From the NCBI GenBank assembly GCA_964562105.1, contig CAZLRP010000002.1, positions 19,222 through 83,221 on the forward strand: DNA of 64,000 nucleotides, written 5' to 3'. Of this stretch, positions 7,532 through 60,516 are shown piece by piece (the stretch's first letter is position 1; each line of letters begins with the position of its first letter). The notes beneath the pieces were generated by a model. The model ran no database searches, was not told the origin of the DNA, and saw nothing but the letters and a program-made list of their open reading frames with translations. The position numbers and the translations under genes were made by a program. This stretch comes from an uncultured Candidatus Saccharibacteria bacterium (GTDB taxonomy: Bacteria; Patescibacteriota; Minisyncoccia; Phycocordibacterales; GWA1-40-21).

Positions 7532-9604
7532 ATGCTTATTTCACAAATGAAAAAGAATAACAAATTCTGGAAAGAGAGAAGAAAAGACAACCGAAAGACT
7601 GAACACTCTGGCAAATTAAGGATTCTAAGTGGTAAAATCAAAGCCATCCGAGGACATACAGCCTATTTTATATCTGATATAAATAATATTTCAGTCGAAA
7701 TTTCTACAAGACAGATAAATACTGCAATGGCTGGAGATAAGGTTGAAATTAAGTTATTTAAAAAAAATAAAGCTGGGGTCCACGAAGGTGAAGTGGTAAA
7801 AATTCTAAGTCGCGCAAAAAATTATTTTGTCGGAACTATTGAATTGTCTGCCAAAGGTGTACTTGTGATTCCAGATGATAGAAGAATTAAAATTTCAGTA
7901 AAAATTACCCCGGAAAAAGCCATCGATTTAAAAAACAAGGATAAGGTTAGGGTAAAAATAATAAAATGGGTAGAAGCCCCTGCGTTTTCCGAAGGAGAGA
8001 TTGTAACTGTTTTAGGCAAAAAAGGAGATAATTCCACCGAGATGAATTCTATTGCGATAGATAAAGGTTTTGATATAGATTTTCCCGCGCAGGTTTTACA
8101 GGAATCCAAAAATATTTTCAATCAAAGCGCAAAAATTTCTTCCGAAGAAATCGCAAAGAGAAAAGATTTGAGAAATACGCTTACCTTTACGATTGACCCA
8201 AAAACTGCAAAAGATTTTGACGATGCAATTTCCTTTAAAAAACTCTCGAATGGAAATTTTGAAATTGGGGTTCATATCGCCGATGTATCTCACTACGTCA
8301 CAGAAAAAAGCGAGCTAGACAAAGAAGCTTATAAGCGAGGATGTTCCGTGTATCTTCCCGATAGAACGATCCCTATGCTTCCCTTTGAGCTTTCTGATAA
8401 CCTCTGCAGTTTGAGCGAAGGAGATGAAAAACTCGCCTTTTCAGCTATTTTTGAAATTAATCCTCATGCAAAAGTACTTTCAAAATGGTTTGAAAAATCT
8501 GTCATAAAATCTGCAAAAAGATTCACTTATGAAAGTGCCCAAGAAATTTTGAATGCAAAAACAGGTCAGCACTTTGAAGAGCTTAATACATTAAATAAAA
8601 TTGCAAAACTTTTGAGACGTGAAAAATTCCAAAAAGGCGCGATAGATTTTGAACAGGAAGAAATAGCTTTTGAACTAGACGAGGCTGGAAAACCTATAAA
8701 AATTTACAAAAAACAAAGACTTGATACTCACAAACTAGTTGAAGAATACATGCTTCTTGCAAACAAAGAAGTTGCTGAATATGTCTATAAATTTGAGAAA
8801 AAGTCCGGTAAACTGTTCCCTCTTCCGTATCGTATTCACGATTTTCCAGACAAAGATAGAATTTCCGAGCTCGCAGTTTTTGTAAAAGCTTTGGGACATG
8901 AGCTTATTATCGGAAAAACAGGAAGCATTACAGGAAAAGATATGCAGGCACTTTTTGCTCAAGTAGAAGGAAAAGCTGAAGAATCACTTGTAAAAACTGC
9001 TGCGATTCGCTCAATGTCAAAAGCAATCTACTCAACAAAAAATATCGGACATTTCGGACTGGCCTTTGAATATTACGCACACTTCACCTCGCCTATCAGA
9101 AGATATCCTGATCTTTTGGTTCACAGGATTTTGCAAAAAATACTTAGCAAAGACCGCAGTCAAATAAAAAGCCAATTTGACGGGGCAAGAAATATCGCCC
9201 ACGAAAAGTCTGCTGACCTCGTGGCAAGAGAAATAAATCTGGTATTTTACGAGAAAGCTTGTTCACACAGTACAGATCAAGAAATAAAAGCTTCCGAAGC
9301 AGAACGTGACGGAAGAAAATACAAACAAATAGAATATATGCAAGATAAAGTTGGAAAAACTTTTGACGGTATTATTACCGGCGTCACTGAATGGGGTATT
9401 TATGCGGAAGATTCGCAAACTAGAGCGGAGGGTATGATAAAGCTTTCTTCACTCGGAGATGACTTCTATAAACTTGATGCAAAAACTTATTCTGTAATCG
9501 GAGAAAAAACAAAACAAGTTTATTCGCTTGGACAAAAAGTAAAAATTAAACTAGTTTCTGCAGATTTAGACAAAAAGCAGATGGATTATGAAATAATTAG
9601 CTAA
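7532..9604 (+). CDS. rnr: Ribonuclease R (RNB-family 3'-5' exoribonuclease with C-terminal S1 domain)
   Basis: Cold-shock/OB N-terminus, RNB motifs (HFGLAFEYYAHFTSPIRRYPDLLVHR) and a C-terminal S1-like domain. Confidence 0.9.
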   Translation: MLISQMKKNNKFWKERRKDNRKTEHSGKLRILSGKIKAIRGHTAYFISDINNISVEISTRQINTAMAGDKVEIKLFKKNKAGVHEGEVVKILSRAKNYFVGTIELSAKGVLVIPDDRRIKISVKITPEKAIDLKNKDKVRVKIIKWVEAPAFSEGEIVTVLGKKGDNSTEMNSIAIDKGFDIDFPAQVLQESKNIFNQSAKISSEEIAKRKDLRNTLTFTIDPKTAKDFDDAISFKKLSNGNFEIGVHIADVSHYVTEKSELDKEAYKRGCSVYLPDRTIPMLPFELSDNLCSLSEGDEKLAFSAIFEINPHAKVLSKWFEKSVIKSAKRFTYESAQEILNAKTGQHFEELNTLNKIAKLLRREKFQKGAIDFEQEEIAFELDEAGKPIKIYKKQRLDTHKLVEEYMLLANKEVAEYVYKFEKKSGKLFPLPYRIHDFPDKDRISELAVFVKALGHELIIGKTGSITGKDMQALFAQVEGKAEESLVKTAAIRSMSKAIYSTKNIGHFGLAFEYYAHFTSPIRRYPDLLVHRILQKILSKDRSQIKSQFDGARNIAHEKSADLVAREINLVFYEKACSHSTDQEIKASEAERDGRKYKQIEYMQDKVGKTFDGIITGVTEWGIYAEDSQTRAEGMIKLSSLGDDFYKLDAKTYSVIGEKTKQVYSLGQKVKIKLVSADLDKKQMDYEIIS

Positions 9605-10093
9605 TTATTTCTCAAATTCTTGTAATAATTTAATATATTCTTGTTGTCTTTCTTTTATAACCCAATTCTCTCCTAGTAGATTAATTTTATTTTCATTTAT
9701 AATCCATTTACACATACCACAAAAAAATCCTTTTGGAGTTGCAATAAAAAGCCAGGGACAATTCCATCTATCTAAAAGTTTCTGCGCATGCGCTTTGATA
9801 TCATCCATATCTAGTAACTGTCGATATTTTACTTCCACGAGATAAAGTTCAGGTTTATTTTTTGATTTTAAATCTTCAGAGATTAAAACAAAATCTGGTG
9901 CTTCTGAAATGTTTTCAATAATATGTTTAATTTCCGTAAAATGATGTTGATATTGAGCAAGCATTGGCATTGTATATTCGTAGCCAAATGGAATAACTGT
10001 ATATCGTTTTTCATCTCGAATCATCTGTTCAAAAATAACTTCTGCTATTTTCCCTTTTATTAATTCTTTTGAAAATTTGATTTCTTTTTCCAT
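9605..10093 (-). CDS. Hypothetical PD-(D/E)xK nuclease-fold-like protein (about 163 aa from Met at 10093)
   Basis: PDFVLISED ... ELYLVEVKYRQ resembles the D...(D/E)xK restriction-endonuclease-like motif. The gene overlaps the 3' end of smc on the same strand. Confidence 0.45.
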   Translation of the reverse strand: MEKEIKFSKELIKGKIAEVIFEQMIRDEKRYTVIPFGYEYTMPMLAQYQHHFTEIKHIIENISEAPDFVLISEDLKSKNKPELYLVEVKYRQLLDMDDIKAHAQKLLDRWNCPWLFIATPKGFFCGMCKWIINENKINLLGENWVIKERQQEYIKLLQEFEK

Positions 10094-10103
10094 GTTATTT
10101 AAT

Positions 10104-12392
10104 TTATTTCGCCACCTCGACCGCCTCCTCAAACTGAATAGAAAGTAATCTTGAAACTCCATCTGAACCCATTGTCACTCCATAAATTACACCCGCACGA
10201 GACATTGTTTCTCTATTATGAGTAATAAGAATAAGCTGAGAGTATTTTGAAAGTTCGGTTATCATATCTCCATATTTTTTAGAATTGGCTTCATCAAGAG
10301 CCGCATCCGTCTCATCAAGAATAATAAATGGTGGCGGATTGACCTGAGAAATTGCAAAAAGAAGCGCGATGGATGTAAGAGCTCTTTCTCCACCAGAGAG
10401 CATCATCAAGCCCTTTATTTTTTTCTTCGGCAGATTTACTTCAATTTCCAAACCCTCTTCGGTTTCTTCCTCTTCTTCTTCGACTAATTCTTCACCGTCG
10501 GATTCTACAGGTAAATCCGTATCAAGTTTTTTTCTCTTCTTTTCTTTAACAACCGAAAGTGTGGCTGAACCTCCTCCAAACATTGCAGTAAAAAATTGCT
10601 GGAATTGAGTATTTATTTTAGCAACTCCAGTTTTAAATTCTGTTGTAAGCTTTTCTTCCAATTCTTTGATTAAATTCTTCAAAGATTCTGATGAATTGAT
10701 AAGGTCTACAAGTTCTTTTTCAAGGAAAGTGTCTCTTTCGGTAGTTTCTTTGTATTCTTTTACAACATCATCTCCACCAGAAACTCCGGCATCTTCTAGA
10801 CGAATTTTTATCTTTTCCATTGCGCGCTTTTTATCTTCCTGTACTTGTCTTCCTTCTTTGACAATCTGTTCCAAAGAAAGCGCTGAGCCGTCTGCATTTG
10901 TAGGCCAAAAATCTTTGTATCTAAGCGCGGAAATTCCTACTAAAATAGAAGCCTCTTGAAGTTCCCTGTTAAGCTCATCTTCGTCATGTTTCAATCTTGA
11001 TTCCCTATTTTCAAGTCCGTTTAACTTACCTCTTATTTCATTTTGTTCAGCAACAATTCTAAACAAAGATTTTTCGGCATCTCTGTTTGAATCCTTTTCT
11101 TTTTCAATATCGTTCTTCAAGAAGGAATATTGCTCAGAGAGTTCTGTTTCAATATTATTTGCTTCTTTTAATTTTTCTTCATGGCCCTTTTTCTCTGATT
11201 CAAGTTTTTTAATTTCTTCTTCCAAATCTGTGATAGCTTGTTTATCTTCATTTTCTTTGTTTCTTTCAATAAAATCACGAAGAATTTTTTTAATTGAAGA
11301 AAAAATTTCTTTTATTTTTGAAAAATCATGGCTTTCATTTACTCCATCAATTTCCAAATCTATTTGTTTAGAGATATTTTCAACAGCCGATAAATCCACT
11401 GTTTTTAAAGACTTTGCGGAATTTGCTTCGTGCTGTTTTTTAATCATCCTTTCTAGGGATGAAATCTCTCCTTCAATACGCCCAATACTCCTCATCAGAT
11501 TATCTTTTTGATTACGAGTTTCTTTGAGTTTTCCTTCTACTTTGATAACTTCCTCGCTTCTTGAGTCTTTAGAAGATGATTTCTCTAAAACTTGTTTTGC
11601 CTCGGCAAGTTCCCTTTCTAATTTGTGTGACATTTCAAGCAAAGGCTTTTTTTCGCTAGAAATGCTTTGTTTTTCATATTTAATATATTCTTCCTCACGC
11701 CTGAAATAATCGTGATACATTTTTGTAAGATCCTCCTTCATCTCAAACATCTTTTCTATCTTTTCCACTTGTTTTTTCAAAAACTTGATATGAGGAGCAA
11801 TCTCTCTTCTCAGGGATTCTACTTGCTTTATATTTTCTTCTGTCTTTTCAAGTTTGCGAACACTTTCATCTTTTTTGTTTTGATAAATCTTCAAACCTAA
11901 AGCATCTTCAATCATTTCTCTTCTCTCGCGAATGTTTGAATTTAAAACTTTATCGGCTTCTCCTTGAGAAATGATTTGATGGCCAGAAGCGCCGATATGC
12001 GCAGAAGAGAGCAGTTCAACAATATCTTTCAAACGAACAACGCTTCCATTTATAGAATATTCGCTTGAAGAGTCTCTATTCACGACACGTTCAATAGCAA
12101 CTTCGTCAAAGTCTATATTTAAAATCCTTTGGATATTATTGAAAACTAATTTAACAGAAGCACGATTTGAACGCGACGCATCTTTTCCTCCGTTAAAAAT
12201 AAGGTCTTCGGCTCTTTTACCTCTCAAAGATTTGATGGATTGCTCTCCCAAGACAAAGCTGAATGCTTCTGCAACATTTGATTTTCCTGAGCCGTTTGGC
12301 CCTACAATAGCAGAAATAGGAACATTAAAATCCAATACGGACTTTTTCCCGAATGATTTGAATCCCGATATTTCTATTGATTTTAGATACAT
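10104..12392 (-). CDS. smc: Chromosome segregation protein SMC, unusually short (762 aa), no recognisable hinge; acidic insert before the signature motif
   Basis: N-terminus MYLKSIEISGFKSFGKK...IVGPNGSGKSNVAEAFSFVLGEQS. C-terminus LSGGERALTSIALLFAIS...FIILDETDAALDEAN...ILITHNRETM. Conserved rnc-smc neighbourhood. Confidence 0.8.
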   Translation of the reverse strand: MYLKSIEISGFKSFGKKSVLDFNVPISAIVGPNGSGKSNVAEAFSFVLGEQSIKSLRGKRAEDLIFNGGKDASRSNRASVKLVFNNIQRILNIDFDEVAIERVVNRDSSSEYSINGSVVRLKDIVELLSSAHIGASGHQIISQGEADKVLNSNIRERREMIEDALGLKIYQNKKDESVRKLEKTEENIKQVESLRREIAPHIKFLKKQVEKIEKMFEMKEDLTKMYHDYFRREEEYIKYEKQSISSEKKPLLEMSHKLERELAEAKQVLEKSSSKDSRSEEVIKVEGKLKETRNQKDNLMRSIGRIEGEISSLERMIKKQHEANSAKSLKTVDLSAVENISKQIDLEIDGVNESHDFSKIKEIFSSIKKILRDFIERNKENEDKQAITDLEEEIKKLESEKKGHEEKLKEANNIETELSEQYSFLKNDIEKEKDSNRDAEKSLFRIVAEQNEIRGKLNGLENRESRLKHDEDELNRELQEASILVGISALRYKDFWPTNADGSALSLEQIVKEGRQVQEDKKRAMEKIKIRLEDAGVSGGDDVVKEYKETTERDTFLEKELVDLINSSESLKNLIKELEEKLTTEFKTGVAKINTQFQQFFTAMFGGGSATLSVVKEKKRKKLDTDLPVESDGEELVEEEEEETEEGLEIEVNLPKKKIKGLMMLSGGERALTSIALLFAISQVNPPPFIILDETDAALDEANSKKYGDMITELSKYSQLILITHNRETMSRAGVIYGVTMGSDGVSRLLSIQFEEAVEVAK

Positions 12393-13497: not shown

Positions 13498-13518
13498 AAA
13501 TTATGATTTATTATTTTT

Positions 13519-13655
13519 ATCCGCACACTAATTCTATCATCGTTGCATCGTGTTCTTAATATCAGTAAATATTATGTTGTTTATTAAGTAAGTTTAATTT
13601 TATATAACTAATCTCTCTGCGCAACAAAAACACAATGATAGAGTTAGTGTGCGGA
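13519..13655. repeat. Family-A palindromic element copy 1 (about 137 bp; termini CCGCACAC...GTGTGCGG with 35-nt arm complementarity)
   Basis: Left arm tccgcacactaattctatcatcgttgcatcgtgtt and right arm gcaacaaaaacacaatgatagagttagtgtgcgga. The right 35 nt are identical to the copy at 52862-53000. The element overlaps the last 4 codons and stop of the nusB-Nudix gene and ends 22 nt before the rnc start codon. Confidence 0.7.
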
Positions 13656-21042: not shown

Positions 21043-21079
21043 AAACATACGAATATACAAATATTACTAATGGTACAAA

Positions 21080-21158
21080 TGGCTACAAATAATTAATTCG
21101 TTTCGAATTTATTCGTAGCCATTCGTATCATTCGCATAATTCGTTAATTCGTAATAAC
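21080..21158 (+). promoter_or_regulatory. ATTCGTA heptamer direct-repeat array (motif copy A) in the thrS 5' region
   Basis: attcgtt..attcgtagcc attcgtatc attcgcata attcgtta attcgtaa with about 9-10 bp spacing, plus a flanking near-IR ATGGCTACAAATAA / TTATTCGTAGCCAT. Homologous to 29404-29449 and 36193-36250. Confidence 0.55.
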
Positions 21159-21169
21159 ATCATAAAAAT

Positions 21170-22960
21170 ATGGAAAACGAAAAATTACACAGAATGAGAC
21201 ACTCGCTCGCCCACATACTTGGCGCAGCTGTTATCGAATTGTATCCTGATGTAAAAATAGCAACAGGTCCAGCAATTGAAAACGGTTTTTATTATGATTT
21301 TGATTTTTCCGCACCGATTACAGACAAAGACCTTGGAAAAATTGAGCAAAAAATACGTGAACTTTCAAAAAAAATAAAATCTTTTGATAAAGCAGAAATT
21401 TCGGAGAATGATGCAAAGAAACTTTTCGCAGACAATCCATATAAACTTGAGCTTATAGATGAATATGCAAAAGACGGAAAAACTCTTACTGCTTATACTT
21501 CGGGAGATTTTACAGACCTTTGCGCAGGCCCTCACGTAGAAAGTATGGATGAAATTAAAAATAGCGCTTGGAAACTTGAAAGGCTTGCCGGAGCATATTG
21601 GAAAGGAGATGAAAACAATAAAATGCTTACAAGAATTTACGGCTTAGCATTTCCAACAAAAGAAGAACTTGATGCATACGAAAAACAACAAGAAGAAGCT
21701 AAGAAAAGAGATCATAGAAAGCTTGGAAAAGATTTAGATCTTTTTCACATGGATGAAAAAGTTGGGCTCGGTCTCCCTTTATGGCATCCAAAAGGAGCTA
21801 TGCTATGGAGAATCATTGAAGATTTTTGGTATCAGGAGCATCTCAAAAATGACTACGATTTAGTAAGAAGCCCGCATATAGGTAAAAAAGAATTATGGGA
21901 AACATCAGGTCATTGGGGTTTTTATAATTCAAGCATGTATCCTCCGCTTGAAGCAGGACAAACATTGAAAGAAAAACAGGAAGGTAAAAAAATTGAACAT
22001 TCTGAGGAATACTTACTTAAACCAATGAATTGTCCTTTTCATGTTCAGATATATAAAAACAGTCCAAAATCCTACAGAGAATTCCCTTTCAGATGGGCAG
22101 AATGTGGAACGGTTTACAGATTTGAGAAAAAAGGTGAACTTTCCGGACTAACTAGAGTAAGAGGATTCACACAAGACGACGCACACATACTTTGTAGAAA
22201 AGATCAGGTTGAAGATGAATTAAAAAGAGTCATTGATTTTATTTTATTTATTTATAAATCTTTTGGTTTTGATATTAGTTCAGTAAAGGTATTTCTTTCT
22301 TTGAGAGATCCAAATAATAAAGAAAAATATGCCGGTAATGATGAAGGTTGGGATTTTACTGAAGAAGTTTTAAGAAAAGTTGCCATAGAGAAAAAACTTG
22401 ATTTTGCAGAAGAAAAAGGAGAAGCGGCATTTTATGGACCAAAACTTGATTTTAAAGTCAAAGATGCTCTAGGAAGATTGTGGCAATGTTCCACACTACA
22501 ATTTGATTTTAATTTGCCTGAAAGATTTGATCTAACATTCATGAATTCAAAAAGCGAACAAGAAAGACCATACATGCTTCATAGAGCTCTCTTTGGAAGC
22601 TTTGAAAGATTTATAGGACTACTCATTGAACATTATTCTGGTGCATTCCCTCTCTGGCTCGCACCCGTGCAAATAAAAATAGTTCCGATAAGAGAAAATC
22701 ATAACGAGCATGCAGAAAAAATTTCTAAGGAACTAAAAGATGCTGGGTTCAGAGTAGATTGCGATACAAAAGAAGGAAATATGGGAGGAAAAGTTCGCGA
22801 TGCAAAAAATAATAAAATTCCTTATACGATAATCATCGGAGACAAAGATATTGAAGCTAAAAAAATATCAGTGGAATCAAGAGATAAAGGACAGCTCGGT
22901 CAGATGGATTTGAAAGATTTTATTGAAAAGATTGAAAAAGAAAAGGAAAACAGAGAGTAA
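21170..22960 (+). CDS. thrS: Threonyl-tRNA synthetase (lacks N-terminal TGS domain)
   Basis: HSLAHILGAAV editing-domain start, class-II core (FRWAECGTVYRFE, GFTQDDAHI), C-terminal anticodon-binding domain. Confidence 0.9.
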   Translation: MENEKLHRMRHSLAHILGAAVIELYPDVKIATGPAIENGFYYDFDFSAPITDKDLGKIEQKIRELSKKIKSFDKAEISENDAKKLFADNPYKLELIDEYAKDGKTLTAYTSGDFTDLCAGPHVESMDEIKNSAWKLERLAGAYWKGDENNKMLTRIYGLAFPTKEELDAYEKQQEEAKKRDHRKLGKDLDLFHMDEKVGLGLPLWHPKGAMLWRIIEDFWYQEHLKNDYDLVRSPHIGKKELWETSGHWGFYNSSMYPPLEAGQTLKEKQEGKKIEHSEEYLLKPMNCPFHVQIYKNSPKSYREFPFRWAECGTVYRFEKKGELSGLTRVRGFTQDDAHILCRKDQVEDELKRVIDFILFIYKSFGFDISSVKVFLSLRDPNNKEKYAGNDEGWDFTEEVLRKVAIEKKLDFAEEKGEAAFYGPKLDFKVKDALGRLWQCSTLQFDFNLPERFDLTFMNSKSEQERPYMLHRALFGSFERFIGLLIEHYSGAFPLWLAPVQIKIVPIRENHNEHAEKISKELKDAGFRVDCDTKEGNMGGKVRDAKNNKIPYTIIIGDKDIEAKKISVESRDKGQLGQMDLKDFIEKIEKEKENRE

Positions 22961-23008
22961 AAAAGGCGGTTCTGCGCAGCTTTATGCGAAGCAGAACCGC
23001 CTTTTTTA
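22961..23008. terminator. Intrinsic terminator ggcggttctgcgcagctttatgcgaagcagaaccgcc (near-identical copy at 24858-24894)
   Basis: 11-bp GC-rich stem flanked by A-run and T-run, after the thrS stop. Confidence 0.7.
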
Positions 23009-23016
23009 TTACTTTT

Positions 23017-24813: not shown

Positions 24814-24852
24814 AAATAGAAGGTAGAATATAGGATATAGAAAATATAAATA

Positions 24853-24900
24853 CAAAAGGCGGTTCTGCGTAGCTTTATGCGAAGCAGAACCGCCTTTTGT
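24853..24900. terminator. Intrinsic terminator ggcggttctgcgtagctttatgcgaagcagaaccgcc (1-nt variant of the 22965-23001 hairpin)
   Basis: Between convergent genes 23773..24813(+) and gyrB(-). Confidence 0.7.
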
Positions 24901-24942
24901 ATTTTGCATTGAATTTCCTATCTTCTACCTTTTACATTCTGT

Positions 24943-29378: not shown

Positions 29379-29403
29379 GATTGATCTGGTATTTAAATTT
29401 AAT

Positions 29404-29449
29404 TATTTGTAGCCATTTGTATCATTCGAATAATTTGTATATTCGTATG
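29404..29449 (+). promoter_or_regulatory. ATTCGTA/ATTTGTA heptamer array (motif copy B) between pheS and pheT
   Basis: ttatttgtagccatttgtatcattcgaataatttgtatattcgtatg. Same order and orientation on the + strand as copy A. Confidence 0.5.
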
Positions 29450-29456
29450 TTCATCT

Positions 29457-30221: not shown

Positions 30222-30268
30222 AACCCCAATTATACAGAATTTTTACCTTTTTGCATCATATATGTTGT

Positions 30269-30339
30269 GCCATTCCCGTGAAAACGGAAATCTAGATTGA
30301 ATTAAATTAATTTTGGATTCCCGTTTTCACGGGAATGGC
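30269..30339. repeat. Family-B REP-like palindromic element copy 1 (GCCATTCCCG...CGGGAATGGC)
   Basis: Outer IR plus two internal ATTCCCG-loop-CGGGAAT hairpins and the shared core AATCTAGATTGAATTAAATTAATTTTGGATTCCC. Confidence 0.7.
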
Positions 30340-30345
30340 AGATGT

Positions 30346-36192: not shown

Positions 36193-36250
36193 TTACGAAT
36201 TATTATACTAATATACGAATTTATGCGAATGATACGAATGGCTACAAATA
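36193..36250 (-). promoter_or_regulatory. ATTCGTA heptamer array (motif copy C) abutting the rpmE start codon
   Basis: Reverse complement reads tttgtagccattcgtatcattcgcataaattcgtatattagtataataattcgtaac-ATG, nearly identical to copy A upstream of thrS. Confidence 0.55.
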
Positions 36251-36371
36251 TACACCATACGAACTATTCAGATGCAAGAATAGTACATTATTTTATAAAA
36301 AATACAAGAGCGGTTTTGGCTTCGCCAAAACCGCTCTTGTATTTTTTATTTTTCCTAAAAACTAGGACCTA

Positions 36372-41293: not shown

Positions 41294-41305
41294 AATTTTT
41301 TAATT

Positions 41306-41376
41306 GTCATTCCCGTGCAGACGGGAATCCAGAATTAGTTTAATACAACCTAGATTCCCGCATCCGCGGGAATGAC
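41306..41376. repeat. Family-B REP-like element copy 2 (inverted core orientation), 12 bp upstream of the SET-gene start
   Basis: gtcattcccgtgcagacgggaatccagaattagtttaatacaacctagattcccgcatccgcgggaatgac. Confidence 0.7.
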
Positions 41377-41381
41377 ACACA

Positions 41382-43110: not shown

Positions 43111-44970
43111 ATGTGTGGAATTGCCGGGACTGTGAGTCCCGAAATAAAAGAAAAAGATAGTGTTATACGAGAAATGATTTCTCGCATTTTTCATCGTGGA
43201 CCAGATGATGACGGTTTTTTTGTGGACGAGAATATTGCTTTGGGTATGCGCAGATTGTCTATAATAGATATTTCTACCGGTAAACAACCTATATGGTCGC
43301 AAGATAAAAAGAAAGTTATATTTTTTAATGGTGAAATTTATAATTATCTCGAACTCCGTAAAGAATTGATTTCAAAAGGCCATATTTTTGATACACATGG
43401 CGACACAGAAGTTATCTTGCACATGTATGAAGAATATGGAGAAAAAATGCTTACCCAGCTACGAGGTATGTTTGCATTTTGCATATATGACAAAGAAAGC
43501 AAAGCTGTTTTTCTGGCACGAGATTTTTTCGGAATAAAACCGCTTTATTATCTTAAAGATGCCGAAAAAATAGTTGCGTTCTCGTCTGAAATAAAAAGTT
43601 TTTTGTCTTACCCAGGATTCAAAACCGTGGTCAATGATTCAGCTGTCTACAATTATTTATCATTCCAATACAATCCACTTCCCGAAACTTTTTTCAAATC
43701 CGTTTATAAGCTTCCTCCTGCCCACTGCATGAAAATTGACTTAAAAAATGGAAGCGTGGAAATTAAAAAATATTGGTCATACGAAATTAAGCCAGATGAA
43801 AATTTGGAAGAGATTGAGACCACAAAAAAAATCCACGAAACTATACGAGATTCAGTAGAACATCACATGATTGCAGATGTTCCCGTCGGCTCTTTTCTTT
43901 CTGGCGGAATTGACAGTAGTATTATTGCCACGATGATGCAGGAAATCCGTGGAGGCAACCCCAGTCAAATAAAAAGCCAATTTGACGGGGCAAGAAAAAT
44001 TAAAACTTTTACAGTTGGTTTTGATACACTAACAGAAGGCGTAGAATCAAAAGAAACATCAGATTTTCTTGGCACAGATCATACAGAAATAAAAATCGGG
44101 CCTGAAGAATATTTTAATATTCTTCCAAAAGCCGTATATCACTTTGATGAGCCCGTCGCCGATCCTTCCGCTATTGGGCTTTATTTTGTAGCCCGTGAAG
44201 CAAAAAAACATGTCAAAGTTGTACTTTCTGGTGAGGGGGCTGATGAACTTTTCGGCGGATATAATATATATCTTGCACCTTTTGCTTACAAAAAAATATC
44301 TTGGATTCCTAAAAGCTTTTTGAAAATAATTTTAAAAATACCATTTGAATTTTTTGGAAAAAACTATATTCGCCGCGCGAGCGACTTGCTTTCAAACTGG
44401 TATGTAGGCAACGCTTCAATATTTAAAGATTTTGAGCGAGATTTGTTGTGGAAAAAACAAGTTGAACAAAAATATTCCCTTTCGCCATTTTATGAACATG
44501 TAAAAAATTTGAGTGATTCTACGCAAATGCAATATATTGATGTTTCTACTTGGCTCATTGGAGACATCCTGGCAAAAGCTGATAAAATGACAATGGCAAA
44601 TTCATTGGAGCTTCGCGTGCCTTTTTTGGATAAGAAAGTTTCAGATTTGGCCTCCACTTTGCCAGATAAATTTAAATGGCGTAAAGGCGTGACTAAATAC
44701 CTTTTGCGAGAGGCATTTAAGAATGTAATCCCCGAGAGCACCCGCAATAGAAAAAAGCTTGGTTTTCCAACACCAATTCGCGATTGGTTCACCGAAGACA
44801 GACAAGATTTATACCAGAAAATATACGACTGTAAATACATAAGAGAGCATATGAATGTTGAATATATTAAAAAAATTGTGGAAGATCATATAAATAAAAA
44901 AATCGATAACTCCAGAAAAATATATTTACTTTTAATGCTCGCTTTGTGGTTTGAGGTATTTGTTAAATAA
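43111..44970 (+). CDS. asnB: Asparagine synthase (glutamine-hydrolysing)
   Basis: MCGIAG N-terminal nucleophile, SGGIDSS PP-loop. Confidence 0.9.
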   Translation: MCGIAGTVSPEIKEKDSVIREMISRIFHRGPDDDGFFVDENIALGMRRLSIIDISTGKQPIWSQDKKKVIFFNGEIYNYLELRKELISKGHIFDTHGDTEVILHMYEEYGEKMLTQLRGMFAFCIYDKESKAVFLARDFFGIKPLYYLKDAEKIVAFSSEIKSFLSYPGFKTVVNDSAVYNYLSFQYNPLPETFFKSVYKLPPAHCMKIDLKNGSVEIKKYWSYEIKPDENLEEIETTKKIHETIRDSVEHHMIADVPVGSFLSGGIDSSIIATMMQEIRGGNPSQIKSQFDGARKIKTFTVGFDTLTEGVESKETSDFLGTDHTEIKIGPEEYFNILPKAVYHFDEPVADPSAIGLYFVAREAKKHVKVVLSGEGADELFGGYNIYLAPFAYKKISWIPKSFLKIILKIPFEFFGKNYIRRASDLLSNWYVGNASIFKDFERDLLWKKQVEQKYSLSPFYEHVKNLSDSTQMQYIDVSTWLIGDILAKADKMTMANSLELRVPFLDKKVSDLASTLPDKFKWRKGVTKYLLREAFKNVIPESTRNRKKLGFPTPIRDWFTEDRQDLYQKIYDCKYIREHMNVEYIKKIVEDHINKKIDNSRKIYLLLMLALWFEVFVK

Positions 44971-45610
44971 AATGGGAAATCAAAAAGCTTTAAAAAGAGA
45001 GGATGTTAAAAAAGTAAAAATTCTAGAAAACAACGAACCTTTGGTTGAAATTTTTGAAACTGAAAAAATTTCACTTTTATCCGAACACAAATTTTTATAT
45101 CCTTTTTTGAGAAAAACTACTTTGGAAAAATTAATAGAAGCGAGCCGAAATCTGCCAGATCAATATAAATTACTGGTAGTTACAGCGTACAGATCATTTG
45201 AAATGCAAAAAGAACTTCACCGTCAAAGATCTTGGCAGATGGCGAAAAAATATCCTTTTTTGATGATTTTTTGGTATAAAAAATGGCAAAGTTTTGTAAT
45301 GAAATATACAGCTCCTCCTGGCGGTTCCCCACATCAAAGTGGCGGAGCTGTTGATGTTACTTTGATAGATAAAAATGGAAATAGATTAGATATGGGAACA
45401 AGTTTAACTGATTTTGGAGAAAAAGTTCATACAAATTCAAATTTAATTACAAGCGAGCAAAAAACAAATAGAAAAATCCTATGTGAAGCTATGACTAAGG
45501 CAGATTTTACAAACTATCCGTTGGAATGGTGGCATTTCGATTATGGCGACAATATGTGGGCTGCTTATTCAGGCTTAGATAATTGTATGTACGGACCTTT
45601 AAATAAATGA
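44951..45610 (+). CDS. VanX/DdpX-family D-Ala-D-Ala dipeptidase (M15 peptidase)
   Basis: SPHQSGGAVDVTL and EWWHFDY motifs. Confidence 0.7.
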   Translation: MRYLLNKMGNQKALKREDVKKVKILENNEPLVEIFETEKISLLSEHKFLYPFLRKTTLEKLIEASRNLPDQYKLLVVTAYRSFEMQKELHRQRSWQMAKKYPFLMIFWYKKWQSFVMKYTAPPGGSPHQSGGAVDVTLIDKNGNRLDMGTSLTDFGEKVHTNSNLITSEQKTNRKILCEAMTKADFTNYPLEWWHFDYGDNMWAAYSGLDNCMYGPLNK

Positions 45611-49083: not shown

Positions 49084-49094
49084 ATTTGTTTTGT

Positions 49095-49162
49095 GTCATT
49101 CCCGTGTAAACGGGAATCTAGGTTGAATTTTAATAATGGATTCCCGCATTCGCGGGAATGAC
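49095..49162. repeat. Family-B REP-like element copy 4, 11 bp upstream of the gatB start codon
   Basis: gtcattcccgtgtaaacgggaatctaggttgaattttaataatggattcccgcattcgcgggaatgac. Confidence 0.7.
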
Positions 49163-49290
49163 AATACAAAAATACAAATAAATAATAGCATAAAAATTAT
49201 AAAATGAGCTTCATTTTTATCCTTGACAAAAGATTTATAATGAGGTACAATTCACAAGTAGCTAAATTTGTTCTTCAAAAGGAGAAAAAC

Positions 49291-49488: not shown

Positions 49489-49522
49489 AGCGGTATCTTT
49501 TATGAGGAGATGCCGCTTTTTT
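49489..49522 (+). terminator. Intrinsic terminator agcggtatc-ttttatgaggag-atgccgct + T6 (identical copy at 50011-50046)
   Basis: 9-bp stem including one G-T pair, followed by a T-run. Confidence 0.65.
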
Positions 49523-49616
49523 AATTACATTTTTATCCATTTTTACAACTTGATAATACAATTATAATAATGTAGAGTTTTGCTAGATAGTTATATTTTA
49601 ACAAAGGAGGTATTTT

Positions 49617-50010: not shown

Positions 50011-50046
50011 AGCGGTATCTTTTATGAGGAGATGCCGCTTTTTTTA
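50011..50046 (+). terminator. Intrinsic terminator, exact duplicate of 49489-49522
   Basis: aagcggtatcttttatgaggagatgccgctttttttatt. Confidence 0.65.
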
Positions 50047-50055
50047 TTGTACACT

Positions 50056-50126
50056 GTCATTCCCGCGGAGGCGGGAATCTAGGTTGAATTAAATTAATTC
50101 TGGATTCCCGCCTGCACGGGAATGAC
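50056..50126. repeat. Family-B REP-like element copy 5 (most complete)
   Basis: gtcattcccgcggaggcgggaatctaggttgaattaaattaattctggattcccgcctgcacgggaatgac. Just 3' of the obg stop. Confidence 0.7.
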
Positions 50127-50133
50127 ACACGAT

Positions 50134-51147
50134 TTATTTTATAGCTCTTAGTATTTTAATCAGATTATCTTTCAGCCCTTTTATAGATTGGTCATCCAAA
50201 ACCGTCACAGTCAAAATGTTAGGATTTAACTTTGACATTTTTTTTATCGCTTGAGCTATTTTCTTATCTGCGTAAAGTCCGCGTGAAGTCCGCGTTTTTT
50301 CCGCGTCTTCCAGCAAATCTTTCTTTGTAAGGATTAGAACTTCTTTTTTTTCTGCGAGTTCTTCGCTGTAAACTTTGAGCTCATTTCTGATGACTTTGTA
50401 ATCTTTTACCAAATCTTCGCTATCAAGAGAAAGACAATGAAGCAAAGTTTTTGTCCTTTTTATATGTCTCAGAAATTTATGTCCAAGTCCCTTTCCTTCT
50501 GAAGCGCCTTCTATGAGTCCAGGAATGTCAGCCAAAATATAGCCATGCATATCTCCAAGCGAAGGTTCAAGCGTTGTAAATTGGTAAGCTCCGATTTTTG
50601 ATTTTGAATTGGTAAGGACATTTATCAAACTGGATTTTCCTGCATTTGGAAGCCCGATAAGCCCCGCATCAGCTACAAGTTCAACTTCAATGGAAAAATC
50701 CGCTTCTTCCGCAGATTTTCCGTCAGTTTGGTTTTCCGGAGATCTATTTACGGCATTTTTAAAATATTCGTTTCCAAGACCTCCCTTTCCGCCATTTAGT
50801 ATTTTTATTTTCTCGTCATCAGTAACCAGATTGAATTTTTCTCTTGTTTCAAGATTGGTAACGACAGAACCGATAGGTACATCTATTATCAAATCCGCGC
50901 CATTTTTTCCATGCATGCTTTTTTTCATTCCGTCTTCTCCTTTTTCTGCAATAAATTCTTTTGTATTTTTATATCTTGCAAGCACAGCAATATCGCGAAT
51001 GGCGCGTAAATATACATCGCCACCTTTTCCTCCATTTCCACCTGCAGGACCTGCTCTATCAATTCCCTTCTCGTGCCTCCAACGCACAACTCCGTTTCCT
51101 CCGTACCCGGCAGATATATGTATTTTTAATTCATCTATAAAAGCCAT
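50134..51147 (-). CDS. obg: GTPase Obg
   Basis: Obg fold FIDELKIHISAGYGGNG..., G-domain GLPNAGKSSL. Confidence 0.9.
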   Translation of the reverse strand: MAFIDELKIHISAGYGGNGVVRWRHEKGIDRAGPAGGNGGKGGDVYLRAIRDIAVLARYKNTKEFIAEKGEDGMKKSMHGKNGADLIIDVPIGSVVTNLETREKFNLVTDDEKIKILNGGKGGLGNEYFKNAVNRSPENQTDGKSAEEADFSIEVELVADAGLIGLPNAGKSSLINVLTNSKSKIGAYQFTTLEPSLGDMHGYILADIPGLIEGASEGKGLGHKFLRHIKRTKTLLHCLSLDSEDLVKDYKVIRNELKVYSEELAEKKEVLILTKKDLLEDAEKTRTSRGLYADKKIAQAIKKMSKLNPNILTVTVLDDQSIKGLKDNLIKILRAIK

Positions 51148-52455: not shown

Positions 52456-52852
52456 CTCTGATTTCTTCTATATCCTTTGAAATATGATCTATCTTAACCC
52501 TGACATTTGTGATTTCTTCTTCCTCTTTAGCTACCTCGGCTTCAGTTTTATCTGTTACTTTTTTTTCTTTTTTAATTCCAGAAATAATAACTCTTTCTCC
52601 AATAAGGTTTGATACAAAAAGACCTGTCATAAGTAAGATGAGCGAAGACCAAATTACTGTAACCGGTTCATAAAAAAACCAACCCAAAAAACCACCCCTT
52701 GCCATTAAAATATCGGCTGTATGCCATATTCCTCTCCATAAAAGAATAGTCCCCATCCCACCGACAAATGCGTATATTATTGATCTGTGGCTCAACCTTA
52801 TTCTTACTCTATCTTCAAGCTTGTCAAAATAACTTACTATCGATTTAAACAT
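52436..52852 (-). CDS. Small membrane protein with C-terminal coiled coil
   Basis: Two TM helices followed by a KE-rich helix. Confidence 0.4.
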   Translation of the reverse strand: MFKSIVSYFDKLEDRVRIRLSHRSIIYAFVGGMGTILLWRGIWHTADILMARGGFLGWFFYEPVTVIWSSLILLMTGLFVSNLIGERVIISGIKKEKKVTDKTEAEVAKEEEEITNVRVKIDHISKDIEEIRDDITKK

Positions 52853-52861
52853 ATGAATCTT

Positions 52862-53000
52862 GTCCGCACACCAACTCTATCATCGTTACATTGTGTTTAC
52901 AGTATCATTAAACGTCAACTTTTATTTACTAAGAAAATTTGCTTTTATTTTACAAATCTCCTTTAGCAACAAAAACACAATGATAGAGTTAGTGTGCGGA
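52862..53000. repeat. Family-A palindromic element copy 2 (about 139 bp)
   Basis: Left arm tccgcacaccaactctatcatcgttacattgtgtt; right 35 nt identical to copy 1. Ends about 10 nt before the start codon of gene 52436..52852. Confidence 0.7.
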
Positions 53001-53137
53001 TTAATTAAATTTAATAATGTAAGCATTATACACTAAAAACAATTAAAAAAAATGAGCTGTTTGTGAGTACACAACAGCCCAATGCAAAAGTATCAAAAGA
53101 TAGAAATATCGTTAAAAATCAACAGTTTTTATGATTC

Positions 53138-58407: not shown

Positions 58408-60516
58408 TTAATCTCCATTCAAGATATTTTTTATAATCGTTTCTCCCTGCGTTTTAAAACTTGGATTTATATTTATTGCTTTTTGCACTTCAGCTATAGC
58501 AGAACCTTTGTCTCCTTTTTGCACAAAAATCTGCGCATTTATAAGATAAGCTCTAACAATGTTTTGGTCCGTGGTCGTAGCGCTTCCTATAAGCTGTAAT
58601 GCTTTAGATTCTTGATTATTTACGATAAGCGCAGCGGCGTAACTCATTCTTCCGTCAACATACTCCGGAACTAAATCATACGCGGTTTTAGCCATTTGAA
58701 GAGCTTCTGTTTTTTGTCCTAAGTAAGCATAACATCTCGCGAGTTCAAACATCATGGTTAATTTATTGGGAGAAAGTTCTACTGCTTTTTGAAGATAAGG
58801 CAAAGCTGTCTCATATTGACCCATATTTTCCAAAAAGATTCCCATAAAAAATTGATATCGCGCATCATTAGGAGTTTGTTTTAGTTGTTCCTGCATTTCT
58901 GCATAAGCAAGATCTGCAAATTCTTGCCTGATTTTTATATCTATACTGGTAGCAGACACGATAGACGGAACAACATTGATTAATTGTTCCCTTGCTTCCG
59001 AACTCCCGAAAGTATTTGCAGAAAAAACTTTCTTATAATAAGTTAAGGATGTTTCTGGGGACTGATTAAGAGATCCCAGAGCTTTTATAAGATTTTTATT
59101 CGCATTTATCGGCTTAATATTGCAATACCAAAGCATCGCTCCCAAGACTATAACAGCAATTGGGATAACGACATAGTTTGCAATATCGTCTGTTATTATT
59201 CTCTTATCGGTAGAGTCTTCTTTCGTATCTCTCGAATAAAGATATGCAAGAACCACATAAAAAAATATGTAGCTTATCAAATTATCAAACACAAAAAGGC
59301 TCTGTGCAAAATATGCCGCAAGCAATCCTACAATTAAACCAACTTCAGTAACTCCAAAACCATTTTTCTTTCTTTTAACAACAAATAAAGAAGAAATAAA
59401 AATTGAAAGATATGTTATAAGTCCAAGAGCTCCTCCTGCAACAAGCACATCTAAAGGAGTACTGTGTGCTCTGTCAAACCATTGTTCTTGATTATACATT
59501 CTATAATCATAATATTTATTAAACACATTATTGAATCCTTCGTTTCCCCAACCCAATATTGGTCTTTCTTGAAAACCTTTCAAAGCCATTGGCCATACAT
59601 ATTGTCTAGCCTGACCTTGTCCGTTGACGTCCTTCCATGAAATTGCCGCTAACCTGCTTAAAGTAACATTGTTTTTTACAAACTGAGTATTTTTTACCGC
59701 AAAGAATCCTCCTATAAGCAAAGCGATAACAACAAGTGTACCTATGGAGCATTTTTTTATTAATTTGTTTTTATTTTCAAATATAGCGATTATTGTTGCC
59801 GTTACTATCAAACCTCCAAGCAAGCCTAGTATTACCCCTCTAGTAGATGTTCTCCATATACCAAAAAAATAAATAAAAGTAGCTACAGAATATGCATAAG
59901 TAAGCCAATTACTAAAAATAGTTTCTACTGGTTTTGCCTCATTTTCACTTTTTGCTATGACATCTTTATATAGAAGAATTAAAGCAAAGAAAAAATTAAA
60001 CATAAAAAACACAGCGACATAAATGGGATTGCCAAGAGTCACTGAAACTCTGGATGTTCCCGTTTTATTCCATTCCTGTATAACAGGTATTATCATAATA
60101 ATACTTGTAATAACTGATGATCTGAAAAACCAAAGCCAGATTTTTTCTGTTTTCATTACAGAACCAAATACAAGCAAATACATAATTAAATGCAGGAGAG
60201 TAATAAAACCATCCATTCTTTCAAAATTGCTCCAAATCGCTTTTGCTGGATTTACGGCAAAAATATCGGCTATAGCCATGATTAGAACAAATGCTCCTAC
60301 AGAAACCGCTACCCAAGAAAACTTCGGCCTATATTTCGCATCTACAAAAGCCAAATAAACCCAAAGCGCAAAAATAATTTCTATTATTATTCTAAATACA
60401 AAATTTTTCCCTGTAATATACGGAAAGAACATACTTTGCGCCACAAAGAAAGGAATGAGAAGAATTGCCCAAAGACCCGTCATTATTGTCCATTTTAATA
60501 TACTATTTTTGTTCAT
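58408..60516 (-). CDS. O-antigen-ligase-like polytopic membrane protein with C-terminal TPR repeats
   Basis: About 12 TM helices in the N-terminal 450 aa. C-terminal TPR-like repeats (AYLGQKTEALQMAKTAYDLVPEY...). Confidence 0.65.
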   Translation of the reverse strand: MNKNSILKWTIMTGLWAILLIPFFVAQSMFFPYITGKNFVFRIIIEIIFALWVYLAFVDAKYRPKFSWVAVSVGAFVLIMAIADIFAVNPAKAIWSNFERMDGFITLLHLIMYLLVFGSVMKTEKIWLWFFRSSVITSIIMIIPVIQEWNKTGTSRVSVTLGNPIYVAVFFMFNFFFALILLYKDVIAKSENEAKPVETIFSNWLTYAYSVATFIYFFGIWRTSTRGVILGLLGGLIVTATIIAIFENKNKLIKKCSIGTLVVIALLIGGFFAVKNTQFVKNNVTLSRLAAISWKDVNGQGQARQYVWPMALKGFQERPILGWGNEGFNNVFNKYYDYRMYNQEQWFDRAHSTPLDVLVAGGALGLITYLSIFISSLFVVKRKKNGFGVTEVGLIVGLLAAYFAQSLFVFDNLISYIFFYVVLAYLYSRDTKEDSTDKRIITDDIANYVVIPIAVIVLGAMLWYCNIKPINANKNLIKALGSLNQSPETSLTYYKKVFSANTFGSSEAREQLINVVPSIVSATSIDIKIRQEFADLAYAEMQEQLKQTPNDARYQFFMGIFLENMGQYETALPYLQKAVELSPNKLTMMFELARCYAYLGQKTEALQMAKTAYDLVPEYVDGRMSYAAALIVNNQESKALQLIGSATTTDQNIVRAYLINAQIFVQKGDKGSAIAEVQKAININPSFKTQGETIIKNILNGD

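Follow-up and report, generated by a model that had tools for sequence, protein, structure and literature searches.

The 36-nt repeat within asnB of the window (the whole 64,000-nt stretch of DNA that was analysed) is probably one copy of a dispersed family of tiny, GC-clamped single hairpins, here called E1, which would be selfish or neutral in the manner of REPs or GC clusters and translated as a tolerated loop. The repeat, CAGTCAAATAAAAAGCCAATTTGACGGGGCAAGAAA, occurs as two exact copies in the window, at 9157-9192 (+) and 43962-43997 (+), with no further match when up to three mismatches are allowed. It was matched in 0 of 100 dinucleotide-preserving shuffles, the chance expectation being none. 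A covariance model made from 96 E1 members found the same two window copies and no others, and with filters off (covariance model R1) no diverged or decayed E1 copies were detected in the window. A first-pass annotation had reported the same 36 nt in asnB and rnr and had placed the element in frame. Both observations hold: the repeat is exact, and its copies lie within intact ORFs in one common reading frame, with the shared peptide (R/P)SQIKSQFDGAR. The AsnB ORF also reads IATMMQEIRGGNPSQIKSQFDGARKIKTFTVGF, as that annotation stated. Its description of the rnr copy as the counterpart of the asnB copy is right in that the element is the same; however, the two are not a private pair: the family, from which about 100 copies were retrieved, extends over many genes and species.

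The E1 of asnB has the structure CCCCAGTCAAAT-AAAAAGCCA-ATTTGACGGGG-CAAG, that is, a GC-clamped hairpin with one bulged A, followed by a CARG tail (Table 1). The palindrome has an 11-bp stem and a 9-nt loop, and folds as DNA at -9.1 kcal/mol (z -4.8), with none of 200 shuffles folding equally well. The boundaries first assigned to the element, 43962-43997, enclose an exact repeat, but the conserved unit lies 3 nt further 5' in both genes. The 36-mer within those boundaries folds weakly (z -1.4), because the CCC of the stem lies outside it. The extra shared AAA, 3' of the E1 copies, belongs to the A-rich flank and is outside the unit. The GC content of E1 is 47%, versus 34% for the window. Its asnB translation is (N)PSQIKSQFDGA(R), at about residues 283-295 of the AsnB-family protein.

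Table 1. Positions of the E1 and E2 hairpins, their parts and their host genes in the window.
Feature	Position	Strand	Remarks
E1, asnB copy	43959..43994	+	36 nt, CCCC-A-GTCAAAT / AAAAAGCCA / ATTTGAC-GGGG / CAAG
Exact repeat common to asnB and rnr	43962..43997	+	E1 shifted 3 nt 3'
E1 hairpin 5' arm, CCCCAGTCAAAT	43959..43970	+	Bulged A at 43963
E1 loop, AAAAAGCCA	43971..43979	+	Most variable part of E1 (family profile)
E1 hairpin 3' arm, ATTTGACGGGG	43980..43990	+	From the fold
E1 3' tail, CAAG	43991..43994	+	Family consensus C-A/G-A/G-G
AsnB-family glutamine-hydrolysing amidotransferase	43111..44970	+	619 aa; host ORF of the asnB E1
RNase R	7532..9604	+	690 aa; host of the sister E1; Pfam RNB, OB_RNB, CSD2, S1
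E1, rnr copy	9154..9189	+	CCGC replaces CCCC; translated RSQIKSQFDGAR
E2, in-frame hairpin insert in rnr	9199..9228	+	30 nt, CCACGA-AAAGTCTGCTGACC-TCGTGG-CAAG; HEKSADLVAR

Relative to close orthologues, E1 is a discrete 36-nt insertion in both asnB and rnr. In asnB, the window has GGA GGC AA(36 nt)A AAA, versus GGA GAC AA/A AAA at the empty site (slash) of L101, which is 83% identical. In rnr, the window has GA(36 nt)A AAT, versus GA/A AAT in the empty L102 and L002. The reverse arrangement, with the site empty in the window and filled elsewhere, is seen for SecA (L051, 87% amino acid identity), RNase HII (L092 and L094) and a Wzy-like gene (L011). E1 inserts between an A and the next base, a single A being the only constant flank, and no target-site duplication is visible in the filled/empty pairs of asnB, rnr and secA, where one A is ambiguous at most.

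A species with 77% AsnB identity carries E1 at the identical codon. Between the asnB genes of the window and L001, which are 73.5% identical overall and have 52% identical codons at conserved residues, E1 is the longest identical run of DNA (38 nt). The asnB and rnr carriers of E1 are non-sister lineages: a split uniting only the two carriers appears in 0 of 100 NJ bootstraps for asnB and in 3 of 100 for rnr, and every carrier of either gene has closer relatives with an empty site. Recurrence at the identical codon in polyphyletic carriers would require an insertion hot spot, precise excision or recombination.

Scans of public collections, which required the E1 stem sequence, returned 7 matches in 6 Patescibacteria MAGs plus 91 metagenome stretches, giving 98 unique copies. 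The range of E1 is AT-rich Patescibacteria, mainly Paceibacteria, and it is common to different species or classes. Long sense ORFs contain 40 of the copies and long antisense ORFs 8, with the remaining 50 in short or no ORFs. The coding copies represent about 35 distinct sites, 28 sense versus 7 antisense (P 2e-8, tested against an expectation of 1/3 derived from the open frames). Hosts verified with Pfam are GatA, RecJ, RF2, RNase HI, ComEC, LigA, ArgRS, NAD kinase, ComM, SecA, TopA, Mur ligase, UvrB, TatD, TsaE, Wzy, PolA, SpoU and RNase HII; one ComEC gene has two copies. Density is 2 per 64 kb in the window and reaches 3 in 8 kb of L008. Intergenic copies can form spacer-less tandem arrays with a 36-nt period, as in L054, where they are arranged head-to-tail.

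In the family profile of 94 copies, conservation runs from the A preceding CCCC through the CARG tail, and the outer flanks are unrelated. The tail after GGGG is C in 68/94, A in 68/94, A in 64/94 and G in 66/94 copies, and the loop has 40 variants, of which AAAAAGCCA is the commonest (n=21). A common frame is read in 36 of the 40 sense copies, and in L009 the frame is restored by a +1/-1 indel pair. Antisense copies use both open antisense frames, giving the peptides PVKLxxxLTG and LPRQIxFLFDWG.

Both window copies are inside essential-type genes. Homologues of the asnB ORF carry the Pfam domains GATase_7 and Asn_synthase, and the ORF's best relative among solved structures is E. coli AsnB (1CT9). 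Gene order around asnB (ribulose-phosphate epimerase, asnB, GT4, RpiB, GatB) is conserved in L001 and L101, and the genes flanking asnB are housekeeping only. About 105 of 120 AsnB homologues have IRG-x-K-KIKTF at the place of the insert, and the remainder have other, seemingly unrelated loop inserts; loop variants are seen in P0026, P0032, P0041, P0088 and P0056, the last of which (RPTADVAST, L103) has no obvious hairpin in its DNA. Compared with the IRG-x-K-KIKTF homologues, the window protein has exactly 12 additional residues at this place. The rnr E1 is missing from 118 of 120 RNase R homologues.

The AlphaFold model of the window AsnB has a mean pLDDT of 87, with values below 50 for insert residues 283-294, which make up the longer of only two low-confidence segments. 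The insert is placed in a loop of the synthetase domain, between helix 267-281, which follows the SGGxDSS PP-loop, and strand 298-304. As modelled, it should be a floppy surface loop. The proposal that the element adds about 12 residues relative to typical AsnB spacing is accurate in length and holds for close Paceibacteria relatives, but not for E. coli AsnB, in which the loop is equally long (1CT9 comparison). Likewise, the insert that had been assigned to an AsnB linker, with structural modelling suggested as a check, is a loop in the model; however, it follows the PP-loop helix and is not inter-domain.

E1 would be a selfish or neutral sequence, its copying or movement taking place in trans. 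By analogy with REP/RAYT, single-strand transposition of the IS200/IS605 type and yeast mitochondrial GC clusters, a putative structure-specific enzyme may act on the folded hairpin. With a length of 36 nt and a single stop-free sense frame, the unit would survive within genes only where it inserts after a second codon position. Copies that survive would then add the hydrophilic peptide PSQIKSQFDGAR to the protein and be retained in tolerant surface loops, and the asnB copy would have no dedicated function for AsnB. Translation of E1 is supported by frame-keeping. That no decayed copies were detected in the window is unexpected for selfish DNA of some age, unless such copies decay quickly within protein loops. 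No longer element with E1 ends was found in 565 kb of loci. A phmmer search for Y1/RAYT transposases, using IS608 TnpA and E. coli RAYT queries of limited power, gave 0 matches among 1778 ORFs of the window and 100 loci.

The strong sense bias of the coding sites could reflect selection acting on the mRNA instead of simple tolerance. It is among the observations consistent with the hairpin being a functional RNA or ssDNA cis-element (a site bound or processed by a host factor, for instance) that is kept by selection wherever it lands, with the peptide as a by-product. Conserved stems and tail around a variable loop point the same way, as do loop variants that lengthen the stem, with a GAAA tetraloop (CCGAAAGG) or with CTTGCAAG, and a few compensatory or wobble changes (AAAT/ATTT to AAAC/GTTT in L066, L079 and L098, and the CCCTGTTAAAT/ATTTAACAGGG variants). 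E1 is also identical between species despite diverged flanking codons. However, the conservation of the stem was imposed by the search pattern and is not usable as evidence, and with the stem sequence fixed in this way the hairpin gains next to no support from covariation. Placement relative to genes is inconsistent (mid-CDS, upstream of uvrB, antisense within CDS, tandem arrays), most orthologues lack E1, and no Rfam family was matched: with Rfam 15, only tRNAs reached the gathering score in the window plus 18 loci, and the L054 array gave nothing credible at E up to 10. A selected cis-element is considered unlikely. A spread without dedicated mobility, by short-patch recombination or gene conversion among competent Patescibacteria or by template switching between copies, would fit the polyphyletic distribution at an identical nucleotide position in asnB and rnr, as well as the 100% identity of the two window copies; the ComEC gene with two E1 copies indicates that uptake machinery exists in these organisms. 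This route is rather improbable, as the flanks of different host genes share no guiding homology, the flanks of the carrier asnB genes are about 73% identical with identity ending at the E1 edges, and a first insertion event is still required at each of more than 30 unrelated sites.

It is very unlikely that PSQIKSQFDGAR is a selected protein module, that is, a short linear motif that many enzymes have acquired. The frame shared by most sense copies would agree with such a role, as would a hydrophilic, loop-compatible peptide that is predicted to lie in an exposed, low-confidence loop. However, roughly half of the copies do not lie in long ORFs, the 7 antisense sites give unrelated peptides, the middle of the peptide simply follows the loop (IKSQ, MTIQ, IEKK, IGFT), spacer-less arrays occur between genes, and E1 is missing from most orthologues. 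Still harder to credit is that the 36 nt are left untranslated through ribosome bypass or mRNA removal. Precedents for bypass or removal are the byp elements of Magnusiomyces mitochondria and the T4 gene 60 gap, and a short, mobile-looking hairpin within essential genes could be seen as analogous. Against this, all coding copies are stop-free with a length that is a multiple of 3, the frameshifted L009 copy has a compensating indel, no take-off/landing codon pair is present, and there is no stop codon at the 5' edge. Chance similarity, or an artefact of assembly or contamination, can be dismissed almost entirely: this reading is refuted by the shuffles and by the independent presence of E1 in JGI, ENA and NCBI assemblies, always in frame and in intact conserved genes.

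No description of E1-type elements in CPR/Patescibacteria was found in the literature searched. Rickettsia palindromic elements are about 100-150 bp long and are found in frame in unrelated housekeeping genes, where they are translated and compatible with the protein fold, as well as between genes (PMC10969869). E1 is likewise palindromic, in frame in many unrelated housekeeping genes, translated and also intergenic. However, at 36 nt it is about a quarter of their size, forms a single short hairpin and has no sequence in common with them, and its hosts are Patescibacteria rather than Alphaproteobacteria (Rickettsiales). Translated in-frame palindromic repeats, known mainly from Rickettsia, are thus now seen in another very large bacterial radiation. 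The Rickettsia case is extended by a 12-codon element, clean empty/filled alleles in more than 20 core genes, and related hairpin families at the same kind of site.

REPs are imperfect, bulged palindromes of ~35 nt (range about 20-40 nt) with a 5' GTAG that are extragenic, number tens to hundreds per genome and are associated with a RAYT gene (a Y1 HUH transposase), which they usually flank. E1 resembles REP/BIME sequences as a dispersed, imperfect bulged palindrome of ~35 nt with a conserved tetranucleotide by the stem, sometimes beside other hairpins. Read on the other strand, it is 5'-CTTG plus a hairpin, compared to 5'-GTAG plus a hairpin in REPs. Unlike REPs, it has no GTAG, the stem being followed instead by a conserved CARG, which on the opposite strand is a 5' CYTG; it also has a low density, and 48 of 98 copies are within long ORFs, many of them in frame. 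Yeast mitochondrial GC clusters such as GC42 are ~40-nt hairpins, single or tandem, that are GC-richer than their AT-rich genome (PMC4478555). Their substitutions are concentrated in the loops, and they have a short target motif (PMC4478555). They also have an AG target duplication and are mostly intergenic. E1 shares the ~40-nt GC-richer hairpin, the single and tandem occurrence, the loop-centred variation and the short target motif. It differs in being bacterial, without target duplication and largely in coding sequence.

IS200/IS605-type elements and their non-autonomous derivatives (PATEs) have two different subterminal hairpins, are at least 100 nt long and target the 3' side of a fixed tetra- or pentanucleotide. 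Seamless presence/absence, no target duplication, ends defined by a hairpin and a short motif at the hairpin edge are shared by E1, which differs in having one hairpin and a constant flank of a single A. As in MITEs, the arms of E1 are terminal inverted repeats, though they make up nearly the whole element; MITEs are about 50-500 bp, however, while E1 is 36 nt, lacks a target-site duplication and has no parent IS with the same ends in the 565 kb of loci. A CRISPR repeat, typically 36 nt long, was rejected, the window copies being 34.8 kb apart and in genes, and the L054 arrays having no spacers. DNA uptake signals (USS/DUS) occur at about 1 per kb and arise by substitution, in contrast to 2 per 64 kb and insertion relative to orthologues for E1, and were also rejected. 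E1 had no match in the phage and plasmid collections IMG/VR, INPHARED and PLSDB, which argues against an origin from a phage or plasmid att site or a protospacer.

E2, the second hairpin of rnr, has the same CC...GG-CAAG architecture as E1 but a different sequence. It is missing from 118 of 120 RNase R homologues, is present in P0148, is identical over 32 nt of DNA in L002, and has a third copy in L010 beside an antisense E1; E2 had no match in IMG/VR. In L011, a 33-nt hairpin insert of the CC...GG design is found at the same kind of site as E1 and E2. A scan of the window for a hairpin plus GGCAAGA tail returned E1 (twice) and E2 and nothing else. It is possible, though less likely than not, that E1, E2 and other CC...GG hairpins are an active, previously undescribed class of ultra-small (30-39 nt) single-hairpin mobile elements of CPR, inserted and excised seamlessly by a putative structure-specific enzyme, hitting the same permissive codons repeatedly across lineages, and translated. 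If so, E1-type hairpins would be the smallest known in-frame mobile elements and would provide a steady supply of new surface loops to reduced CPR proteomes. As a short defined unit with many natural filled/empty pairs, E1 is a tractable system, in which hairpin movement, precise excision and the contribution to lineage-specific loop insertions of CPR can be addressed. E1-type inserts can also be a source of error in the alignment, phylogeny and gene calling of CPR MAGs.

A third-family candidate, CCCAATAGCAA...TTGCTATAGGG-CAAG (39 nt; L019, L075 and L085), was dropped as not clearly within a gene. The 58% similarity over the 33 nt upstream of both window copies is treated as a repeat-extension artefact, as other E1 copies are without it. 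Hairpins of the form GGATTCCC...GGGAATGAC adjoin E1 in L050, L086 and L091, and this hairpin family is also found in the window.

The window contains two copies, and no more, of the 36-mer CAGTCAAATAAAAAGCCAATTTGACGGGGCAAGAAA, at 9157-9192 (+) and 43962-43997 (+); allowing up to three mismatches adds no other match, and 100 shuffles gave none. One reading frame is common to both copies, giving GGNPSQIKSQFDGARK in the AsnB-family protein and KDRSQIKSQFDGARN in RNase R (rnr), as described in the first-pass annotation, which reported the asnB copy as an in-frame repeat of the rnr element. Its claim that AsnB gains about 12 residues is also borne out, since the window reads IRGGNPSQIKSQFDGARKIKTF where about 105 of 120 aligned homologues read IRG-x-K-KIKTF. 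Of the 120 RNase R homologues aligned, 118 are without the 12 residues. The first-pass observation is genuine and accurately described. The closest homologues of both proteins are named as Patescibacteria, class Paceibacteria, and the GC content of the window is 34%.

The limits of the insertion were set by codon-level comparison to the nearest retrievable orthologues, in locus L101 for asnB and loci L102 and L002 for rnr. The window asnB has CGT GGA GGC AA[C CCC AGT ... GCA AG]A AAA ATT, against CGC GGA GAC AAA AAA ATT in L101, and the window rnr has AAA GA[C CGC AGT ... GCA AG]A AAT ATC, against AGA GAA AAT ATT in L102 and CAT GAA AAT GTG in L002. Because of these comparisons of filled and empty sites, the most parsimonious unit, E1, is 36 nt long, lying between A and A after a second codon position, and no target sequence is duplicated. 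The A-rich flanks leave an uncertainty of ±1 nt in the register. The first-pass annotation had the right element; its 36-mer is displaced by 3 nt from this unit. E1 consists of CCCC-(A)-GTCAAAT, a 9-nt loop and ATTTGAC-GGGG, with a CAAG tail. The DNA fold of either strand has an energy of -9.1 kcal/mol (z -4.8, 0/200 shuffles as good); the truncated 36-mer folds poorly.

Repeats, inserts and associated genes in the window.
Feature	Position	Strand	Description
rnr host ORF	7532-9604	+	690 aa, RNase R; contains copy 1
E1, rnr copy	9154-9189	+	begins CCGC
E2	9199-9228	+	in rnr; 30 nt, CCACGAAAAGTCTGCTGACCTCGTGGCAAG; CCACGA-AAAGTCTGCTGACC-TCGTGG-CAAG; translated HEKSADLVAR
Downstream ORF	9605-10162	-	185 aa; directly downstream of rnr; no Pfam match
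asnB host ORF	43111-44970	+	619 aa; contains copy 2; homologues with GATase_7 and Asn_synthase domains
E1, asnB copy	43959-43994	+	CCCCAGTCAAATAAAAAGCCAATTTGACGGGGCAAG
VanX/M15-type gene	44951-45610	+	D-Ala-D-Ala dipeptidase; between asnB and GT4 glycosyltransferase; 20-nt overlap with asnB stop
13-residue insert	50269-50307	-	39 nt, DAEKTRTSRGLYA; in RF1-like gene 50134-51147; relative to 84%-identical orthologue in L001
Intergenic palindromic repeats	30268-30340, 41305-41377, 49084-49163, 50055-50127		two inverted hairpins, TGTCATTCCCG-N6-CGGGAATC ... GATTCCCG-N6-CGGGAATGACA
Intergenic element, 2 copies	13509-13655, 52852-53004		~147 nt; 79-84% identical
AT-rich repeats	21044-21139, 29399-29451, 36218-36266		contain TACGAATGGCTACAAATA
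Terminator-like GC hairpins	22958-23010, 24851-24903		near-identical; A/T runs both sides; 1.9 kb apart
Terminator-like GC hairpins	49489-49526, 50011-50048		near-identical; A/T runs both sides; 0.5 kb apart

E1 belongs to a dispersed family. A scan of 185,579 species-representative genomes for the pattern AGTCAAAT-N7-11-ATTTGACGGGGCAAGA located it 7 times, in 6 MAGs that are named Candidatus Paceibacterota, 'uncultured bacterium' or, in two cases, Saccharibacteria, and a stem-only scan of JGI metagenomes returned 91 stretches. There were zero matches to the E1 pattern in IMG/VR, INPHARED phages and PLSDB plasmids, and no matching family in Rfam; a covariance model of the family, run on the window, recovered just the rnr and asnB copies. 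The 98 unique copies are distributed among long ORFs in sense (40) or antisense (8) and short or no ORFs (50). The hosts are ordinary core genes. Pfam-confirmed sense hosts encode GatA, RecJ, RF2, RNase HI, LigA, ArgRS, NAD kinase, ComM, SecA, TopA, a Mur ligase, UvrB, TatD, TsaE, a Wzy-like protein and ComEC, the last with two copies within a single gene, and antisense hosts encode PolA, a SpoU methylase and RNase HII. In a profile of 94 copies, conservation runs from a single A before CCCC (80%) via the hairpin to a C-A/G-A/G-G tail, with unrelated flanks outside this block. The variable part is the loop (40 variants in the 94 copies).

The distribution of E1 is at odds with the gene trees. 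Besides the window, E1 in AsnB is carried by P0004 (locus L001), which is 77% identical to the window protein, and each of the two has nearer relatives (83-85%) with an empty site. An exclusive carrier split was seen in 0/100 (AsnB) and 3/100 (RNase R) neighbor-joining bootstraps. The window and L001 asnB genes are 73.5% identical in DNA, with identical codons at 52% of conserved residues, yet no stretch of the gene matches for longer than the element itself (38 nt). The window is in turn empty where others are filled, in SecA (L051, 87% amino acid identity), RNase HII (L092/L094) and the Wzy-like gene (L011). This pattern requires recurrent insertion into one permissive position, exact excision, or recombination in patches; a single old insertion inherited vertically does not account for it, as judged from distance trees rather than full reconciliation. 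In the AsnB homologues P0026, P0032, P0088, P0041 and P0056, different inserts occupy exactly the loop that has E1 in the window, including GENPSSRAKLTTEQG, which has the length of the E1 insert and also begins NPS, and RPNADVASALRMSDAEIAAT. These might be decayed E1 copies or different elements; the DNA of the P0056 insert has no obvious hairpin.

E1 is not the only in-frame hairpin insert. E2 lies 10 nt 3' of the rnr E1 copy. Of 120 RNase R homologues, 118 lack it; it is present at the same site in the 78%-identical orthologue in L002 (identity over 32 nt), and L010 has it in an unrelated gene, adjacent to an E1 in antisense orientation. The Wzy-like gene of L011 carries, besides E1, a 33-nt (~11 codons) in-frame hairpin, CCTGCCTGCCGCGACGAGCACGGCGCAGGTAGG, at GA|A, which folds as RNA at ~-21 kcal/mol with 6-nt flanks and is missing from the window orthologue (ORF 58408-60516). 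All three are placed after A at the second codon position, and E1 and E2 share the CAAG tail. Comparison of the three thus indicates several families of one design, 5'-CC...stem-loop-stem...GG. The in-frame insert in the RF1-like gene holds a direct repeat, CGCGGACTT(C/T)A, and is of a kind unlike E1.

Two of the three sense frames of E1 contain stop codons; 36 of the 40 sense copies are read in the third. In one LigA copy, an extra nucleotide ahead of the stem (+1) is offset by the loss of one in the loop (-1), so that the frame is restored. Antisense coding copies use both open antisense frames (PVKLxxxLTG and LPRQIxFLFDWG). Distinct coding sites number 28 sense and 7 antisense, against the one third in sense orientation expected from open frames alone (P 2e-8); a few of the 28 probably lie shortly before a start codon. 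The bias is compatible with selection for the hydrophilic peptide made in sense; a mechanism specific to one strand, or a role at the RNA level, would fit it too. An AlphaFold2 model of the window AsnB (45 aligned sequences, mean pLDDT 87) has only two segments with pLDDT <50, residues 53-56 and the E1 insert (283-294). Helix 267-281, next after the SGGIDSS PP-loop, precedes the insert and strand 298-304 comes after it, in agreement with the surface loop anticipated in the first-pass annotation. E. coli AsnB, the best solved relative (1CT9), has a loop of equal length at this position, which is reportedly disordered in that crystal structure. Most likely, the asnB copy is a tolerated passenger.

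E1 is a discrete hairpin unit, inserted seamlessly and recurrently, and is translated where it lies. It is probably selfish or neutral DNA, handled by a putative trans-acting enzyme that would recognise the folded hairpin and adjacent tetranucleotide. REP sequences consist of GTAG plus a palindrome and are cut by RAYT transposases, and the complementary strand of E1, 5'-CTTG plus a bulged palindrome, has the same layout. Seamless filled and empty alleles, as seen for E1, are typical of IS200/IS605-type single-strand transposition. A weak search found no such enzyme in the window, the asnB neighbourhood or 565 kb of carrier loci.

REPs are, with the 42-nt mobile GC clusters of yeast mitochondria, the closest physical parallels; however, E1 lacks GTAG and is not restricted to extragenic locations, so is not itself a REP. 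The yeast clusters are hairpins with variable loops, GC-richer than their AT-rich genome, found singly or in tandem arrays and moved by an unknown engine (PMC4478555). The closest functional parallel is the Rickettsia palindromic elements, which are likewise in frame, translated and fold-compatible; however, these are 100-150 bp (PMC10969869) rather than 36 nt, and unrelated in sequence. E1 has no target duplication, is too small for a MITE and has no parent IS in the loci covered; its copies lack the spacers of CRISPR repeats, and its low density and origin by insertion set it apart from uptake sequences. E1 is a new, very small form of in-frame palindromic repeat element. The literature searched contains no account of such elements in CPR bacteria, and on that basis they are previously unreported in this lineage. 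The interest lies in the family and its unexplained mobility, apparently site-recurrent and seamless.

Intergenic E1 copies also form spacer-less head-to-tail arrays with a 36-nt period (e.g. L054 4680-4790), and such intergenic arrays of E1-type hairpins, with a 35-36-nt period, are seen in L054 (4560-4790), L018 (~2063-2135) and L021 (~1139-1213). The L054 array loop, CCGAAAGGCA, lengthens the stem and is closed by a GAAA tetraloop. Some intergenic copies abut a hairpin repeat of another type, GGATTCCC...GGGAATGAC, which has members in the window too. The four palindromic repeats of the window are REPIN-like in layout, and their hairpin type directly abuts intergenic E1 in L050, L086 and L091. 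The ~147-nt element has terminal inverted repeats of ~26 nt, TCCGCACACTAAYTCTATCATYGT, and the look of a MITE. One pair of the AT-rich repeats forms 53-nt inverted repeats (91% complementary) bracketing 8.3 kb.

The VanX/M15-type gene is missing from L001 and L101, which are otherwise syntenic with the window. The slot downstream of rnr also differs among relatives, and on the contig of P0136, an E1 carrier, it holds a reverse transcriptase and bAvd, that is, a diversity-generating retroelement. P0172, a 755-aa RNase R relative, bears a GIY-YIG nuclease domain (PF01541), suggesting a homing-endonuclease-type insertion or fusion in the RNase R family.
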